DNA of 64,000 nucleotides, from positions 32,001 to 96,000 of IMG/VR virus record IMGVR_UViG_3300033388_006651; one strand, 5' to 3'. Source of the stretch: a virus. Position numbers and translations under genes: made by a program. Positions 33,820 through 53,917 of the stretch are shown in pieces (position 1 is the stretch's first letter; the number at the start of each line of letters is the position of its first letter). The notes below the pieces were generated by a model. It worked only from the letters and a program-made list of their open reading frames with translations. It was not told the DNA's origin and did no database searches.

Positions 33820-33896
33820 TGGTGAGCGGGGAGGGATTTGAACCCTCGACCCAGTGATTAAGAGTCACTTGCACAACCAGACTGTGCTTCCCGCCC
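33820..33896 (-). tRNA. tRNA-Lys(CUU)
   Basis: AGTGA-CTCTTAA-TCACT; CCA end. Confidence 0.88.
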
Positions 33897-33949: not shown

Positions 33950-33982
33950 CTACAGCTTGGATTTCAGTTTCATGCAGAACAT
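33950..33982 (-). CDS. Lys-rich leader peptide MFCMKLKSKL
   Basis: Lies between the promoter and the first tRNA-Lys; AAA, AAA, AAG. Confidence 0.55.
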   Translation of the reverse strand: MFCMKLKSKL

Positions 33983-37604: not shown

Positions 37605-37638
37605 TCAAGGAGGTCCTCATAGGGGTAAAAATGATGAC

Positions 37639-38844
37639 ATGCTCGTCCTGTTCCCGTCTGACCCTTTTGAGACCTACAAGCCCGAGCCGGACTACGTCCA
37701 GGAGATCGAGATCGCAAAAGAGTGCGGCCACGAGGTTGCCTTCATCCATTGGGAAGCCCTGGTGAACGATGACGACGCTGCCGCGGCCATCAGGAAGGTT
37801 CCTGTTTTCGAGGATTCCACCCCTGCCATCTACCGGGGTTGGATGCTGACCTCCGAGCAGTACGAGAAGCTCTACGCAGAGCTCCAGATCCATGACGTTG
37901 ATCTGTTGACCACTCCCGACGCCTACCGTAAGGCCCATGAGTTCCCTGGGTGGTACTTGGAGATCCCGAAAGCGACTCCGGCGTCGGCGATCATCCAGAA
38001 GCATGAGATCAGCATGGAGAGGCTGCTCAGCAGGGCCAAGGAGATGCTCGAACAGTACGAGCACGGCATCATCATCAAGGACTACGTGAAAAGTCGGAAG
38101 CACGAGTGGGAGGAGGCGTGCTTCATCCCCGATATGTCCAAAGCTGAGGTGGTGATCGCCAACTTCCTCGAGCGCCAGGGTGACGCTCTCCAAGGCGGCG
38201 TTGTGCTCCGGGAGTTCGTGCCGCTCAAGTCGATCGGTAAGCACCCTGACTCGGGGATGCCAATGGGCGAGGAGTTCCGCATCTTCTGGATGAACGGTCG
38301 AGTGGCCGCCGCTGCGGAGTACTGGCCTTCCGAGTTCTACATCGGTGAGGAGCGTGAAGATGAGAACGCAGGTGACGGGAGCACGTACCGTGTGCCTCAT
38401 GCCCTGAGCACTCTCCCCGATCCACAGTCGCTTCTCGAACTCCTCGAAAACATCGACAACCCGTTCGTCTCGATGGACCTTGCGCGTGCCGAGGATGGTG
38501 AGTGGTTCGTCATGGAGATCGGCGACGGTCAGGTCTCTGGGCTCCCGCGCCCCAAGCTCGATGCCCGGCTCATTTACAGCCGGCTCGATCGGTTGCTCGG
38601 GCCTCCTGGGCTTGCCTCGGACGCGACACCGATGACCCAGGCACAGTTCGCCGGTATGACGTGCCACGCCGAAGGCTGCGACCACACCGGCCACGACACC
38701 GAGATGTACCTGCACCCCAAGTGCCACGTCGGTTCTCCGACCTGGGCGATTTACGAGGACGGCGTCATCAACGTGAAGTGTGCCGAGTGCAAGACGCTCG
38801 TGGTCAGAATCGCGGTTGACCCCGGTACGGTCGTCGAAGATTAG
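37639..38844 (+). CDS. ATP-grasp domain protein (R2K-like) with C-terminal Cys/His domain
   Basis: YRGWML, IIKDYVKSRKHEW, EFRIF, SMDLA, MEIGDGQVSGLP. Confidence 0.75.
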   Translation: MLVLFPSDPFETYKPEPDYVQEIEIAKECGHEVAFIHWEALVNDDDAAAAIRKVPVFEDSTPAIYRGWMLTSEQYEKLYAELQIHDVDLLTTPDAYRKAHEFPGWYLEIPKATPASAIIQKHEISMERLLSRAKEMLEQYEHGIIIKDYVKSRKHEWEEACFIPDMSKAEVVIANFLERQGDALQGGVVLREFVPLKSIGKHPDSGMPMGEEFRIFWMNGRVAAAAEYWPSEFYIGEEREDENAGDGSTYRVPHALSTLPDPQSLLELLENIDNPFVSMDLARAEDGEWFVMEIGDGQVSGLPRPKLDARLIYSRLDRLLGPPGLASDATPMTQAQFAGMTCHAEGCDHTGHDTEMYLHPKCHVGSPTWAIYEDGVINVKCAECKTLVVRIAVDPGTVVED

Positions 38845-39050
38845 AGGGCGTGGTCTCGAATGGCCTTGGTCAGCCGGCGCACTTTATTGGTGAAAATAGA
38901 GTAGAACCGGGGGTCCACTTCGTGCAGGAGATGGAGGAGAGATTCGATCTCGGCCTCGGCATCTTCCTGGTCCACGATGTTCTTGGCGACGGCACGGGTG
39001 CAGTCGGGCTGAGAGGTGAGCCAGTGGTTGATGCGTTCTTCGTAAGTCAC
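38841..39050 (-). CDS. Small hypothetical protein
   Basis: ORF. Confidence 0.4.
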   Translation of the reverse strand: MTYEERINHWLTSQPDCTRAVAKNIVDQEDAEAEIESLLHLLHEVDPRFYSIFTNKVRRLTKAIRDHAL

Positions 39051-39119
39051 GATCTAGGTGTATCGCAGGGTCTTGATCCGCCTCGGATCAAGCGCCGTCG
39101 AGAAAGTTGAAGAATTCGT

Positions 39120-39148
39120 TTGACTCGGCGTCTTAGTCCGCGTACACA
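39120..39148 (+). promoter_or_regulatory. Sigma70-like promoter for the main tRNA operon
   Basis: TTGACT-17-TACACA. Confidence 0.55.
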
Positions 39149-39195
39149 GAAATGGTCGCCGTCCCTTGGCAGGAACGCGACTCAAAGTCCCCGCC

Positions 39196-39288
39196 ATGAA
39201 ACACTCCACGACATACACAGCTACGACAACGACTACGGTCGTCGTGGCCGTCGTATTGCCCATTATGGGCGATATGACCTCGTGTTGA
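39196..39288 (+). CDS. Thr-rich (thrL-like) leader peptide MKHSTTYTATTTTTVVVAVVLPIMGDMTSC
   Basis: 8 Thr codons in codons 5-14; followed by hairpins and three tRNA-Thr genes. Confidence 0.7.
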   Translation: MKHSTTYTATTTTTVVVAVVLPIMGDMTSC

Positions 39289-39380
39289 GCATTTCCCGGC
39301 GTTGACCAAAACATCAAACGGCGCCGGGAACCCCCAAAGGGTTTGCTTCGCACGTTCAAAGGCCACGCTGGCTCCCATTC

Positions 39381-39456
39381 GCCGGTGTAGCTCAATTGGT
39401 AGAGCACTGGTTTTGTAAACCAGGGGTTGCGGGTTCGAGTCCCATTACCGGCTCCA
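39381..39456 (+). tRNA. tRNA-Thr(UGU)
   Basis: CTGGT-TTTGTAA-ACCAG; CCA. Confidence 0.9.
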
Positions 39457-39487
39457 AGTATTTCTCTTCACCCAAGGAACAGACAAC

Positions 39488-39562
39488 GCCTTTGTAGCTC
39501 AGTGGTAGAGCAGCTCATTCGTAACGAGCAGGTCGTGGGTTCGATTCCCACCTTGGGCTCCA
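39488..39562 (+). tRNA. tRNA-Thr(CGU)
   Basis: Loop TTCGTAA; CCA. Confidence 0.88.
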
Positions 39563-39564
39563 AG

Positions 39565-39606
39565 CACCAACACCAACACCAACACCAACACCAACACCAT
39601 CACCGA
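39565..39606 (+). repeat. (CACCAA)5 plus CACCAT and CACCGA
   Basis: Read directly. Confidence 0.9.
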
Positions 39607-39611
39607 CATAA

Positions 39612-39686
39612 GCCCTTGTAGCTCAGTGGAAGAGCGCTTCCTTGGTAAGGAAGAAGTCACGAGTTCGATTCTCGTCTTGGGCTCCA
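39612..39686 (+). tRNA. tRNA-Thr(GGU)
   Basis: CTTCC-TTGGTAA-GGAAG; CCA. Confidence 0.9.
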
Positions 39687-39837
39687 GGAACGCAGGACCC
39701 TCGTTCGAAGGTCACAAGCAAAAGGTAAAGACATCTGTTTTTCACACAGAAGACTGCGAGTTCGATTCTCGCCTTCCCCGCCATTTATGGGGAAGTGGTC
39801 ATAAGACGCACTCACCCCGCACACTCTCCTGCGTTCC
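39687..39837 (+). ncRNA. Module RNA A: circularly permuted tRNA-Glu(UUC), broken in the D loop, inside an 11-bp outer stem
   Basis: GGAACGCAGGA/TCCTGCGTTCC; TCACAAGCA; anticodon arm, T arm, CTTCCCC-G-CCA, TTTAT, GGGGAAG-TG-GTC; CACTC. Confidence 0.75.
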
Positions 39838-39998
39838 TTAATTTTCACCCTAATCCCAGCGCCTCGTAGAGCGAGGCACACGACAGCAGCTTCGCTTCGA
39901 GGCGAAAATGGCAGGCGACCGGACGGCCTGTGGGATCAAACAACCGATTTTTCTCAACCCCAACTTCAACCCCCAACGAACAGAAAGGACCGAGCACG

Positions 39999-40136
39999 AT
40001 GAACATCGAAAACGATGACTGCGATGATGTAGATGATACCTACGGAGCAGTGGCGCAGTTGGTAGCGCACTCGGTTGTCAGCCGAAAGGTCGCCGGTTCA
40101 AGTCCGGTCTGTTCCGCCAAGGGGGTGTTGGTCTAG
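39999..40136 (+). CDS. Asp-rich leader ORF reading into the tRNA-Asp genes
   Basis: AAAGGA SD; MNIENDDCDDVDDTY then the tRNA. Confidence 0.55.
   Translation: MNIENDDCDDVDDTYGAVAQLVAHSVVSRKVAGSSPVCSAKGVLV
40044..40119 (+). tRNA. tRNA-Asp(GUC)
   Basis: Loop TTGTCAG; GCCA end. Confidence 0.88.
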
Positions 40137-40204: not shown

Positions 40205-40279
40205 AGTCCTGTAGCTCAGTGGAAGAGCATTCCCGTCACATGGGAGAGGCCATCGGTTCGACCCCGATTGGGACTACCA
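40205..40279 (+). tRNA. tRNA-Val(CAC)
   Basis: Loop GTCACAT; ACCA end. Confidence 0.85.
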
Positions 40280-40422: not shown

Positions 40423-41097
40423 GTGAAGCCGGACAAACAAAAAGAGGCGCGTAGACTGCGTAAGCAGGGCCTTTCTTTGAGTGAGATCGTTACCAAAATT
40501 GGATGCGCAAAAAGTTCGGTTAGCCGCTGGACCCGGGATATCCCTCTCACTAAGACTCAAGTCAAAAACCTTCGACGAAAGGAAGATCAAGGACGACTTA
40601 AAGGCCGTATTGCAGCCGCTACCCATCCCAACTCTCCGAAACAGGTGTGGGCTAAAAAACGAGATGAAGCACGTCAAAAAGGGCACGAAGAGATTTCCCG
40701 GATCGATGACATCTCTCTCAAAATACTCATCGCGGCACTGTACTGGGGGGAAGGGTCAAAGGGTCGTAACAGTTTTTCCATAGCGAACACGGACCCTGCA
40801 ATGGTCCGCCTTATTGCCGCCTTTCTTCGAAAACATTGTCAAGTTCCTGAAGAGCGCCTTCGTTTTCGCGTCTACATTCATCCTCATTTGAGTCTCCGAA
40901 AAGCTCGTATTTACTGGGCTAAAATTGCAGGAACCTCCCCTAAAAATATCGCATCCACCACCGCTGTAAGCTCAGCTAGCCAAGGAAAGAAGGACTCGTG
41001 CCCTTACGGCACTTTTCAAATCACGTACTGTGACACCCTGTTTCGGTCTCGCATAGAAGGCTGGATGGATGCCTTGAAAGAACAGATACCGGGTTAG
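40423..41097 (+). CDS. HTH plus LAGLIDADG-like protein inside the tRNA array
   Basis: GLSLSEIVTKIGCAKSSVSRW; LYWGEG..NTDP; stop codon lies inside tRNA-Val. Confidence 0.7.
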   Translation: MKPDKQKEARRLRKQGLSLSEIVTKIGCAKSSVSRWTRDIPLTKTQVKNLRRKEDQGRLKGRIAAATHPNSPKQVWAKKRDEARQKGHEEISRIDDISLKILIAALYWGEGSKGRNSFSIANTDPAMVRLIAAFLRKHCQVPEERLRFRVYIHPHLSLRKARIYWAKIAGTSPKNIASTTAVSSASQGKKDSCPYGTFQITYCDTLFRSRIEGWMDALKEQIPG

Positions 41098-41201: not shown

Positions 41202-41264
41202 ATGGAAAAAGAAGACAGCGACATTAGCGACATTATCTACTCGGCCCGTGGTCCAGTCTGGTAA
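41202..41264 (+). CDS. Ile-containing leader peptide MEKEDSDISDIIYSARGPVW reading into tRNA-Ile
   Basis: AAAGGAA SD; ATT, ATT, ATC just before the tRNA. Confidence 0.5.
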   Translation: MEKEDSDISDIIYSARGPVW

Positions 41265-41887: not shown

Positions 41888-42041
41888 CAAGAAACCAAGA
41901 AGCCATGAACATCCACCTGAAACAGTTGCCCATCGGCACGGCCAGTCGCATCTCGTTGTTTGCGGCCGGACAGGTGTGTTCTGCCTATCTCCCCAATCTG
42001 GAGACAGGTAGCGGATAACCCTCAGCTCGATCATGGCGCCT

Positions 42042-42077
42042 AAAAGCCCGTCGAGCTCCCTGCTCGCCGGGCTTTTT
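42042..42077. terminator. Intrinsic, probably bidirectional terminator after the tRNA operon
   Basis: AAAAGCCCG...CGGGCTTTTT. Confidence 0.7.
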
Positions 42078-42245
42078 CGTGCTCGGGCCAAGGATCAACG
42101 GCCCTCTCGAGCCCTTTTTCGCCAAACCCTCCCTGGGCCCTCCTTTTCGGACATTTTCACGAACTTTTCACGAACCAAACCAACCACGGGGTACAAGGGA
42201 CGAGCCCGAGTGCTCTGCTTTTCACGAATCAGGACAGACAAGCCA

Positions 42246-44114
42246 ATGGACAACAAAGAAACACTCGGACCCGCAGAGACCATCATCCAGTCACTGCTGG
42301 CCTACTCAGATCACATCTACCACGGCCGCCCCGGCGTCGTGGTGCCCGACGCGCGATCCACGACCGGAGTGCGATGGGACCCCGTCACCCACAAGGTCGG
42401 AGAGGACGGCGTCAAGACCGTTCTTCGCCTCACGCGAAACGGCAAGAAGACCATTCGTACCGAGATCGGCACGATGAACGGCGACAATCGTGTGAAGAAC
42501 GCGGGTGCCGATGTCGGCCTGTACCGCAAGAGCGGCCTCTTCCCAGAGGTTGCCCTGTGGTTCTACAAGCAGATCGCTGAGGTGTGGACGCTCGACAACG
42601 AATTCGCTGCTCGGTGGGCGTCGTACGCCTTCCGTCAGGAGCACCGTGACCTCAAGGTCATGCTCGCTGCGTTCATGCTCGTTCAGTCGCGTAAGGGCGA
42701 CCCCGTCATGGACGGGGGTGAGCGTCTGTTCGACGACGAGGACTACCGTGACGTGGGCGAGGCCATGGTCCTTCTCCTTGAGAAGGGCAACGACCTCAAC
42801 CCGAAGCTCCTGCTTCGGATCTACGATGTCCTGAACCTGCCCGAGATCGCAAAGATCAACCACGAGCTCGGCTTCGGCAAGTCCGCCAAGCGTCCGTTCC
42901 TCGGTCGTTGGCCCAAGGCGATCGACAAGTACCTTCGGTACCGCGAGGAGAACCCGAAGCTGCTCGAAGGGCTCGTCAACAAGGCTGCTTTCGGCAACAC
43001 CGTCAAGACTCTGGCTCGGCGTATCGGCTACAAGCCAACGTCCGACAAGTTCTTCGCTACCCTACGCTGGAAGCAGAAGCAGGCTGAAGACGGGCGTCGT
43101 GAGATGGCCATCGGTAAAGCCGTGAGGGCTGCTGAGTCGTGGGATCACCTCGACGAAGCCGGTGTTTGCGAGCTCATCGAGAAGAACAAGCCTGGCTGGA
43201 AGCGGATCGTGGGTCTCCTTCCTGCGAAGATCGGGGTCACCCGTGCGGTGATGGCTGCGACCATCGAGTCGGGCGGTCTCTCGGACAAGGATCTCATCAT
43301 CCTCACTCCAACGATCGAGGATCTTGGTCTGTTCAAGGTCCAGGAGATCAAGGCGCGTCATGCTGCGGCTCTCGCCAAGGCAAGCGACATGCGTGCGGCT
43401 AACATCGCCCGCAACGTTCGGTCCAAGGATCTCAAGGAGGAGATGGAGACCGGTGCCGACAAGGCAGCTCAGAAGGCTGCTGAGGAGGTCATCAAGAACC
43501 TGCGCCTCTACGTCGTCATCGACCGTTCGGCGTCGATGCAGGGAGCACTGGAGAAGGCGAAGCCACTGATCGCCAAGCTCATTCAGGCAATCCCAGCCGA
43601 GCGTCTGCACGTTTCGACGTTCAACACGATCGGTAAGGTGATCACCTTCAAGCACCACTCGACCGCTGGGGTCGAGGCAGCTTTCCGGGGCGTCAACGCC
43701 GGAGGGGGCACGGTGCACGCAGAAGGTGTTCGGGTTCTGGCTCAGTTCCCGCCTGCGGCAGACGAGGACTCCCTGATGATCTTCATCGGGGACGAGGGCG
43801 AGCGTCGGCACTTTGCCGAAGCTGTGGAGGCATCTGGTCTCCGTCCCCTGGCCTTCGGGCTCCTCGCCACGGTGGGTCCTCGTTGGGGTCGCGGTCAGGC
43901 GATTCGGGACACGGCTGCTCGACTGGACATCCCGTGCTTCGAGATCGATGACCGCACCTTTGATGGCGACCCGTACGCCATCCCGCGTACGATCAGGAAC
44001 CTGATCGCGGCTACCCCTGTGGGGGTGAACACCGGTCGTCGCGTCGTCCCGCGCGTGACGCTGGTGGGTCAGATCCTGGAGACCGAGATTCTCCAGAAGC
44101 CCAACTGGGCATAG
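42246..44114 (+). CDS. Helical-domain plus vWA protein, Ro60/TROVE-like
   Basis: C-terminal MIDAS DRSASM..GGT..IFIGDE after a long helical region; Ro60 assignment is inferred. Confidence 0.6.
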   Translation: MDNKETLGPAETIIQSLLAYSDHIYHGRPGVVVPDARSTTGVRWDPVTHKVGEDGVKTVLRLTRNGKKTIRTEIGTMNGDNRVKNAGADVGLYRKSGLFPEVALWFYKQIAEVWTLDNEFAARWASYAFRQEHRDLKVMLAAFMLVQSRKGDPVMDGGERLFDDEDYRDVGEAMVLLLEKGNDLNPKLLLRIYDVLNLPEIAKINHELGFGKSAKRPFLGRWPKAIDKYLRYREENPKLLEGLVNKAAFGNTVKTLARRIGYKPTSDKFFATLRWKQKQAEDGRREMAIGKAVRAAESWDHLDEAGVCELIEKNKPGWKRIVGLLPAKIGVTRAVMAATIESGGLSDKDLIILTPTIEDLGLFKVQEIKARHAAALAKASDMRAANIARNVRSKDLKEEMETGADKAAQKAAEEVIKNLRLYVVIDRSASMQGALEKAKPLIAKLIQAIPAERLHVSTFNTIGKVITFKHHSTAGVEAAFRGVNAGGGTVHAEGVRVLAQFPPAADEDSLMIFIGDEGERRHFAEAVEASGLRPLAFGLLATVGPRWGRGQAIRDTAARLDIPCFEIDDRTFDGDPYAIPRTIRNLIAATPVGVNTGRRVVPRVTLVGQILETEILQKPNWA

Positions 44115-49550: not shown

Positions 49551-49680
49551 AAGAAGCAACCACTGCCCGTAAGGCTCACAAGCAAAGTAGCTCAGTGTAG
49601 AGCGTCTGTCCTGAAAACAGAAGGTCGCGGTTTCATCACCGTCCTTGCAACAAACCAGCTTTTCCACTCGGTCGCTTCTT
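49551..49680 (+). ncRNA. Module RNA C: degenerate tRNA enclosed in the module
   Basis: AAGAAGC/GCTTCTT; TCACAAGCA; D arm, TCTGT/ACAGA arm; CACTC. Confidence 0.7.
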
Positions 49681-53842: not shown

Positions 53843-53917
53843 GCCGCGGAAGCTGACTTGGTACGCAAGCGCTGGACTGAAAATCCGGAGGTGACAGTTC
53901 GATTCTGTCCCGCGGCA
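53843..53917 (+). tRNA. tRNA-Phe(GAA)
   Basis: CTGGA-CTGAAAA-TCCGG. Confidence 0.85.

Follow-up and report, generated by a model that had tools for sequence, protein, structure and literature searches.

A conserved threonine-codon leader upstream of phage tRNA-Thr genes, a candidate sensor of threonine decoding

A small element (~260 nt) located directly upstream of a tRNA-Thr gene cluster in a huge-phage contig is, as far as sequence comparison can tell, a real, conserved, codon-tuned and two-state leader. Our preferred reading, to which we give a probability of roughly 0.4, is that it acts in cis as a 5' sensor: its Thr-rich mini-ORF would report on the decoding of Thr codons, and the output would be the folding, processing or stability of the tRNA precursor.

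A Thr-rich ORF ahead of the tRNA-Thr genes

The window analysed here is a stretch of 64,000 nucleotides, bases 32001-96000 of a 146,769-bp virus record (IMG/VR IMGVR_UViG_3300033388_006651). CheckV puts the completeness of the contig at 28%, and it is therefore a fragment of a very large phage. ARAGORN predicts 20 tRNA genes in the whole contig, all of them inside the window and grouped by amino acid. The leader ends at tRNA-Thr(UGU) (39381-39456, + strand), which is followed by tRNA-Thr(CGU) (39488-39562, +) and tRNA-Thr(GGU) (39612-39686, +), and then by genes for Asp, Val, Ile and Met tRNAs. A first-pass annotation, made from the sequence alone, had placed Val tRNAs in the same operon, and tRNA-Val genes are indeed found in this array, at 40205 and 40289. 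A gene for an R2K-clade ATP-grasp protein (37630-38841, +) lies just upstream of the array, and a gene for a 693-residue vWA-domain protein (42033-44111, +) just downstream. The vWA protein is conserved in huge-phage contigs (54-67% identity).

Several other features of the array were recorded. The spacer between tRNA-Thr(CGU) and tRNA-Thr(GGU) is filled at 39565-39600 (+) by a hexanucleotide repeat of about six copies, which in one frame reads as alternating ACC codons; several relatives have a much shorter spacer. A partial tRNA-like match to the Rfam tRNA model (39717-39772, +; 30.2 bits, model positions 9-63) has no ARAGORN call, and the same is true of further Rfam tRNA matches at 49581-49650 (42.4 bits) and 53843-53917 (58.7 bits), both on the + strand. 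A 224-residue ORF with only weak helix-turn-helix matches lies between tRNA-Val genes inside the array (40423-41097, +), and in one relative the Thr leader is separated from the tRNA by an inserted HNH endonuclease gene. Judging from these two cases, mobile genes appear to invade these arrays.

With the upstream R2K ATP-grasp protein as query, no relatives were found in viral contigs. The vWA protein as query led to six loci in huge-phage contigs of 78-497 kb, three of which (two contigs with an identical leader) keep the Thr-Thr-Thr-Asp-Val order together with an in-frame leader ORF. Two DNA motifs from conserved parts of the leader were also scanned over viral and metagenome contigs, yielding 30 loci with 18 distinct leader ORF sequences in huge-phage or metagenome contigs. 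These 18 versions share common ancestry and are thus not independent. All have the same start context and the same stop, and 17 are found 78-111 nt upstream of a Thr(UGU, CGU, GGU) trio in the same order; in the eighteenth, an HNH endonuclease gene stands between leader and trio. The association first proposed from a single sequence, a leader ORF of cognate codons ahead of the tRNA-Thr trio, is therefore conserved across 18 versions. In a BLAST search of deposited phages, only the tRNA genes, and not the leader, gave matches.

The element begins with a promoter-like site (39120..39148, +), composed of TTGACT at 39120-39125, a 17-nt spacer and TACACA at 39143-39148. The TTGAC(T) hexamer, the 17-nt spacing and a second hexamer beginning with TA are kept in all 18 versions, with variable spacer sequence, and in all 18 the site stands at a fixed distance from the first hairpin (P1). 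This positional conservation supports the earlier reading of the site as a promoter ahead of the ORF, although it does not pass a strict sigma-70 scan and its second hexamer is non-canonical.

The leader ORF (39196..39288, +) has 30 codons, from an ATG at 39196 to a TGA at 39286-39288, and stops 92 nt before tRNA-Thr(UGU). It encodes nine Thr in total, eight of them within codons 5-14 (ACG x4, ACA x3, ACT x1), and codons 15-20 include five for Val; both the run of eight Thr in ten codons, mostly ACG and ACA, and the Val codons behind it had been described correctly in the first-pass annotation. Among the 293,480 six-frame windows of ten codons in the 146,769-bp contig, this is the only one with eight Thr, and just three have at least seven. 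About a dozen other sites in the contig have at least eight identical residues in ten, mostly homopolymer-like runs of other residues.

The Thr richness persists among the relatives. Thr accounts for 23-32% of the leader peptide in the 18 versions, compared with 7.4% in long phage ORFs of the contig; the Thr positions shift between versions and the richness stays within this range. AC dinucleotides in codons 3-15 of the relatives fall into phases 0, 1 and 2 at 107:7:3, and at codons 7-8, which are unpaired in both predicted folds, Thr occupies 16 of 36 positions. ACA, a codon that is rare in this phage (9% of Thr codons in its ORFs) and is decoded by the tRNA immediately after the leader, accounts for 34% of the Thr codons in the leaders. 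Despite several indels the ORF is 30 or 31 codons long in every version, all changes being of whole codons. The last five residues of the peptide are conserved, and in most versions its middle is hydrophobic. Open frames of 30 codons are not unusual in themselves, and the +2 frame is also open in 15 of the 18 versions. Some of the enrichment in Thr could have a structural origin, because the Thr strand is base-paired with the Val strand. Taken at the level of sequence, the data support a pattern at the level of codons.

No Shine-Dalgarno sequence was identified for the leader ORF, whose mean anti-SD energy (-2.5 kcal/mol) is no stronger than at random positions (-3.25 kcal/mol); the Asp and Ile mini-ORFs described below have energies of -5.6 and -5.9 kcal/mol. 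The start region of E. coli thrL likewise has no obvious Shine-Dalgarno. Based on the ATG, the frame, the whole-codon indels and the phase of the ACN triplets, we consider it likely that the leader ORF is translated even without such a site.

Two extensions of the Thr reading were considered and set aside. A separate role in sensing Val is doubtful, as the number of Val codons varies from two to five among versions, with only two in some relatives, and is explained by pairing with the Thr strand. Nor does the leader appear to list all tRNAs of the operon (Thr, Val, Ile, Met, Asp): in a rough count, the excess beyond Thr and Val is small and falls in codons constrained by structure.

Conserved helices and competing folds

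The region from 39150 to 39380 is predicted to fold with -91.7 kcal/mol (z = -5.5 versus shuffles). Six helices, P1-P6, are shared by the relatives, and compensatory changes occur in several of them. A plain MAFFT alignment misaligns P1, P2 and P5/P6, and RNAalifold recovers from it no more than P3, P4 and part of P5; per-sequence folds were used instead.

P1, the 5'-terminal hairpin (39155..39180, +), has two-sided changes at five of its six stem pairs and an 11-nt loop motif (39163-39173) that is invariant in all relatives and occurs once in the window. A 7-nt string in this loop is identical, not complementary, to part of the D-loop of tRNA-Thr(UGU) in several relatives, and the loop could be the site for a factor that recognises tRNA as well.

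P2 (39220..39248, +) forms between the second Thr cluster and the Val codons and is the ACGAC/GTCGT pairing pointed out in the first-pass annotation. This helix is present in all 18 relatives through three unrelated sequence solutions. One subgroup forms it without Thr codons and still keeps the first Thr cluster. The two hairpins that the same annotation named behind the Val codons also exist, as P3 (39250..39278, +) and P5 (39294-39329). P3 is a 13-bp hairpin within the ORF, with compensatory changes at the tip of its stem (one pair, for instance, is CG in 10, GC in 5 and AU in 1). Residues in the 3' half of the ORF change radically exactly at the covarying pairs of P3, which argues for selection on RNA shape and on Thr codons, not on the peptide.

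Downstream, a three-way junction of P4, P5 and P6 (39281..39354, +) is kept in all relatives. P4 pairs 39281-39291, which contains the stop codon, with 39344-39354; within the junction, P5 pairs 39294-39304 with 39319-39329, and P6 spans 39330-39342. Neither in the window nor in the relatives is there a U tract after P3, P4, P5 or P6, and a terminator scan found no terminator on the + strand, bearing out the earlier remark that a strong U tract is absent. With no U-tract terminator, any control must work in another way.

The junction competes with a long-range duplex, P9, in which segment A (39190..39215, +), carrying the start codon and first Thr codons, pairs with segment A' (39277..39305, +), carrying the last codons, the stop codon and the 5' strands of P4 and P5. 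In the window P9 has an energy of -17.9 kcal/mol, and its z versus shuffles ranges from -2.3 to -5.0 in 18 of 18 versions. Segment A' cannot pair both ways at once, making P9 and P4/P5 mutually exclusive. When either was forced, the totals differed by -6.8 to +7.8 kcal/mol, on totals of -78 to -119, across all 18. In these models the near-equal energies of the two folds are characteristic of a two-state RNA. Neither strand of the P9 core varies among the versions, and covariation therefore cannot confirm this helix; its outer pairs include some two-sided changes. An attenuator, as first suggested, implies alternative structures, and exclusive, nearly isoenergetic folds overlap the ORF in every one of the 18 versions.

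Two further pairings could connect these folds to the tRNA. The 26-nt linker between P4 and the tRNA contains an element (39361..39372, +) whose 5' half duplicates the Thr-codon strand of P2. In P7, which is restricted to the main clade and competes there with P2, this 5' half pairs with the Val strand. In P8, an 'anti-acceptor' helix, the whole element pairs with nt 1-11 of tRNA-Thr(UGU) (-17.5 kcal/mol, z = -3.0 in the window). P8 is significant in 12 of 17 relatives, and the P7/P8 relay is missing in five of the 17. A universal relay of four segments (Thr strand, Val strand, linker and tRNA 5' strand) was rejected, as P7 and P8 both reach significance only within the main clade and in a single outlier.

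Models of the tRNA itself gave mixed results. In a ribosome-mask model of the complete precursor from the window, the probability of the acceptor stem is 0.02 for the free RNA, 0.78 when a ribosome occupies the second Thr cluster and again 0.02 when it stands at the stop, and five of 11 modelled sequences (the window included) shift in the same direction. In a model ending at tRNA nt 14, P8 persists in every ribosome state. Forcing fold A versus fold B produced no consistent change in the predicted acceptor stem, and the idea that the choice between them decides acceptor-stem formation was rejected for inconsistent support. Thermodynamic models of tRNA folding are unreliable.

Known leader peptides and mini-ORFs at neighbouring tRNA genes

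Feedback through leader peptides is known for amino-acid genes, and E. coli thrL is the closest comparison. Both thrL and the phage leader are short, Thr-packed ORFs that directly follow a promoter whose -35 hexamer is TTGACT; they share their first three codons and then Ser-Thr-Thr (with an extra Ile in E. coli). A strong Shine-Dalgarno is absent from both, and each carries its regulatory codons in a strand that pairs alternatively. However, thrL has 21 codons, uses Thr plus Ile, is followed by a GC hairpin and T run (an intrinsic terminator) and controls thrABC, whereas the phage leader has 30-31 codons, a stop codon within a helix, no U tract and phage tRNA genes downstream. Three codons plus Ser-Thr-Thr are too little to argue for descent from a common leader, and convergence may explain them. 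A cmscan of 39050-40050 (E up to 10) gave no match to the Rfam Thr_leader, only tRNA and chance hits. Because it lacks a terminator and an Rfam match and precedes an operon other than an amino-acid operon, the element is thrL-like in its presumed working and not a member of the thrL family. The first-pass label of a thrL-like attenuator thus holds for the Thr-rich ORF and the exclusive helices, and fails for the family assignment, the intrinsic terminator and the type of operon.

The trpL, hisL, leuL, ilvL and pheL leaders offer the same general parallel, in that the position of a ribosome on a run of cognate codons selects between exclusive helices, as it would in the phage leader. Rare codons sharpen the response, as in leuL. 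All five have an intrinsic terminator and serve amino-acid biosynthesis, unlike the phage leader. In tnaC, mgtL and ermC, a paused ribosome on the leader ORF alters the fate of the downstream RNA without an intrinsic terminator, as is proposed for the phage element. These leaders sense tryptophan, proline/Mg or an antibiotic and control protein-coding genes, and the phage leader has no downstream ribosome-binding site to unmask. A T-box, like the phage leader as we read it, is a cis-acting RNA that couples tRNA charging to translation-related genes, but it binds uncharged tRNA directly through a specifier loop and T-box sequence and needs no ORF; the T-box covariance model had no match in a cmscan of 39050-40050 (E up to 10). 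We know of no leader-peptide attenuator that controls a tRNA gene, and a full-text literature search turned up no publication on tRNA genes under leader-peptide control.

Mini-ORFs with matching codons also precede other tRNA genes of these phages. For tRNA-Asp this holds in 14 of 14 versions: a mini-ORF that carries a Shine-Dalgarno and 5-8 Asp in 10-17 codons continues in frame into the tRNA, its sequence differing widely from one version to the next. In the window it lies at 39999-40043 (+), has six Asp in 15 codons and a Shine-Dalgarno, and meets no stop before tRNA-Asp at 40044. Ile mini-ORFs (2-4 Ile) adjoin tRNA-Ile in nine versions. The one in the window (41202-41241, +) is acidic, has a Shine-Dalgarno and three Ile near its end, and runs into tRNA-Ile at 41242; Asp and Ser are as frequent in it as Ile, making the match weaker than for Asp or Thr. 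Six versions have an ORF of 7-10 codons with two or three Lys (three in five of the six) ahead of tRNA-Lys; in the five examined, a separate TTGAC promoter-like site precedes it. In the window, this Lys mini-ORF (about 33950-33982, - strand) encodes three Lys, follows a TTGACT-17-TAGAAC site and is upstream of tRNA-Lys(CUU) (33820-33896). A strong hairpin begins at its stop codon, and an inner start shares its first codons with the Thr leader. From their codon content, the matching Asp, Ile and Lys mini-ORFs in the same phages lend support to reading the Thr leader as a sensor.

Possible output of the leader and its meaning

Under the preferred reading, the transcript would begin a few bases past the promoter-like site, with P1 capping its 5' end, and a ribosome would initiate at 39196. 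If charged tRNA-Thr were scarce, the ribosome would pause on codons 5-14, masking either segment A or the 5' strand of P2. With its A site at codon 5 or 6, it would cover segment A and force the P4-P6 fold, because the stop-codon region could no longer form P9 and would fold forward into the junction. In the clade to which the window belongs, the freed Val strand would then capture the linker and loosen the hairpin that holds the 5' end of tRNA-Thr(UGU). With fast decoding or no translation, P9 and P2 would form, the start codon would be buried and the linker would keep the tRNA 5' strand paired; in the absence of a ribosome, P9 could form once 39305 is transcribed, before the 3' strands of P4 and P5 exist. 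Slow Thr decoding would in this way give more correctly folded, processable or stable pre-tRNA, closing a homeostatic loop that needs no intrinsic terminator. The relay through P7 and P8 is not universal, P8 persists in the shorter model and the choice of fold has no consistent effect on the acceptor stem, and for these reasons we put forward an output step only tentatively. A change in the folding, processing or stability of the precursor is our first choice for it, with Rho-dependent termination second.

In the Rho-dependent version the sensor would be the same, with pausing on Thr codons deciding between P9 and P4-P6, and transcription would terminate before or inside the tRNA genes. The P9 state would leave about 100 nt, from the P5 loop to the tRNA, loose and C-rich for Rho loading, and the stalled state would form the junction and permit read-through. 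The missing intrinsic terminator, the A/C-rich P5 loops and the C-rich, G-poor 5' half of the ORF (C/G 1.5-2.9 in all 18 versions) agree with this, the direction of control would be homeostatic, and Rho-dependent control by leader peptides is established for tnaC and mgtL. We nevertheless regard this output as unlikely: the C-rich stretches span only about 60 nt and are in part base-paired, Rho acts poorly on structured RNAs such as those of tRNA genes, and the model would require a host that has Rho, its support coming from base composition. Taking both outputs together, a ribosome-mediated Thr sensor of one kind or the other seems somewhat probable.

Two explanations dispense with sensing. 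An untranslated structured 5' RNA, either an element for pre-tRNA processing or stability or a stable small RNA released by RNase P, would make the Thr codons a by-product of ACGAC/GUCGU-type pairing. Such an RNA would fit the lack of a Shine-Dalgarno, the placement of both start and stop codons within conserved helices, the very strong structure (z = -5.5) and the invariant P1 loop, which suggests a bound factor. Yet helices do not require the phase of the ACN triplets (107:7:3) or Thr at the unpaired codons 7-8, and nothing in this explanation calls for the first Thr cluster to be retained where P2 lacks Thr codons, for an ORF length varying by whole codons only, or for neighbouring Asp and Ile mini-ORFs that have Shine-Dalgarno sites and match their tRNAs; we judge it fairly unlikely. 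The conserved frame, length and last five residues, and the hydrophobic middle seen in most versions, could instead belong to a functional micro-protein of 30-31 residues (basic N-terminus, Thr-rich stretch, hydrophobic middle, conserved C-terminal end) co-transcribed with the tRNA genes by chance. This is highly improbable, given that the middle and C-terminal half change radically between subgroups where RNA pairs covary, that no Pfam match was found for the peptide, that the ORF is always attached to the Thr trio, and that the comparable Asp, Ile and Lys mini-ORFs, being so short and so variable, could not be proteins.

The usual view is that tRNA genes are controlled at the promoter (by growth rate and the stringent response) and by processing; to our knowledge, a sensor of how well the tRNAs themselves decode has no place in it. 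We tentatively suggest that huge phages of one clade place ahead of their tRNA genes a ribosome sensor that works without a terminator and can be retuned, being built from Thr, Lys, Asp or Ile codons, and in which slow decoding may raise the yield of the matching tRNA through folding or processing of its precursor. If so, slow decoding could arise from a mismatch with host codon usage, from host shut-off or from a host anticodon nuclease; where a mini-ORF leads into tRNA-Asp or tRNA-Ile, a ribosome that does not stall would continue into the tRNA sequence and disrupt its fold. A test of Thr decoding placed on the Thr tRNA precursor would close a direct feedback loop, and the leader would provide a natural example of attenuation logic without a terminator. 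It could also alert the phage to host defences that act by cutting or depleting tRNAs. Regulation of tRNA genes by such a sensor would follow a new logic: it would leave the phage in autonomous control of its capacity for decoding and would help explain how the dozens of tRNAs of a huge phage are balanced against the host pool.
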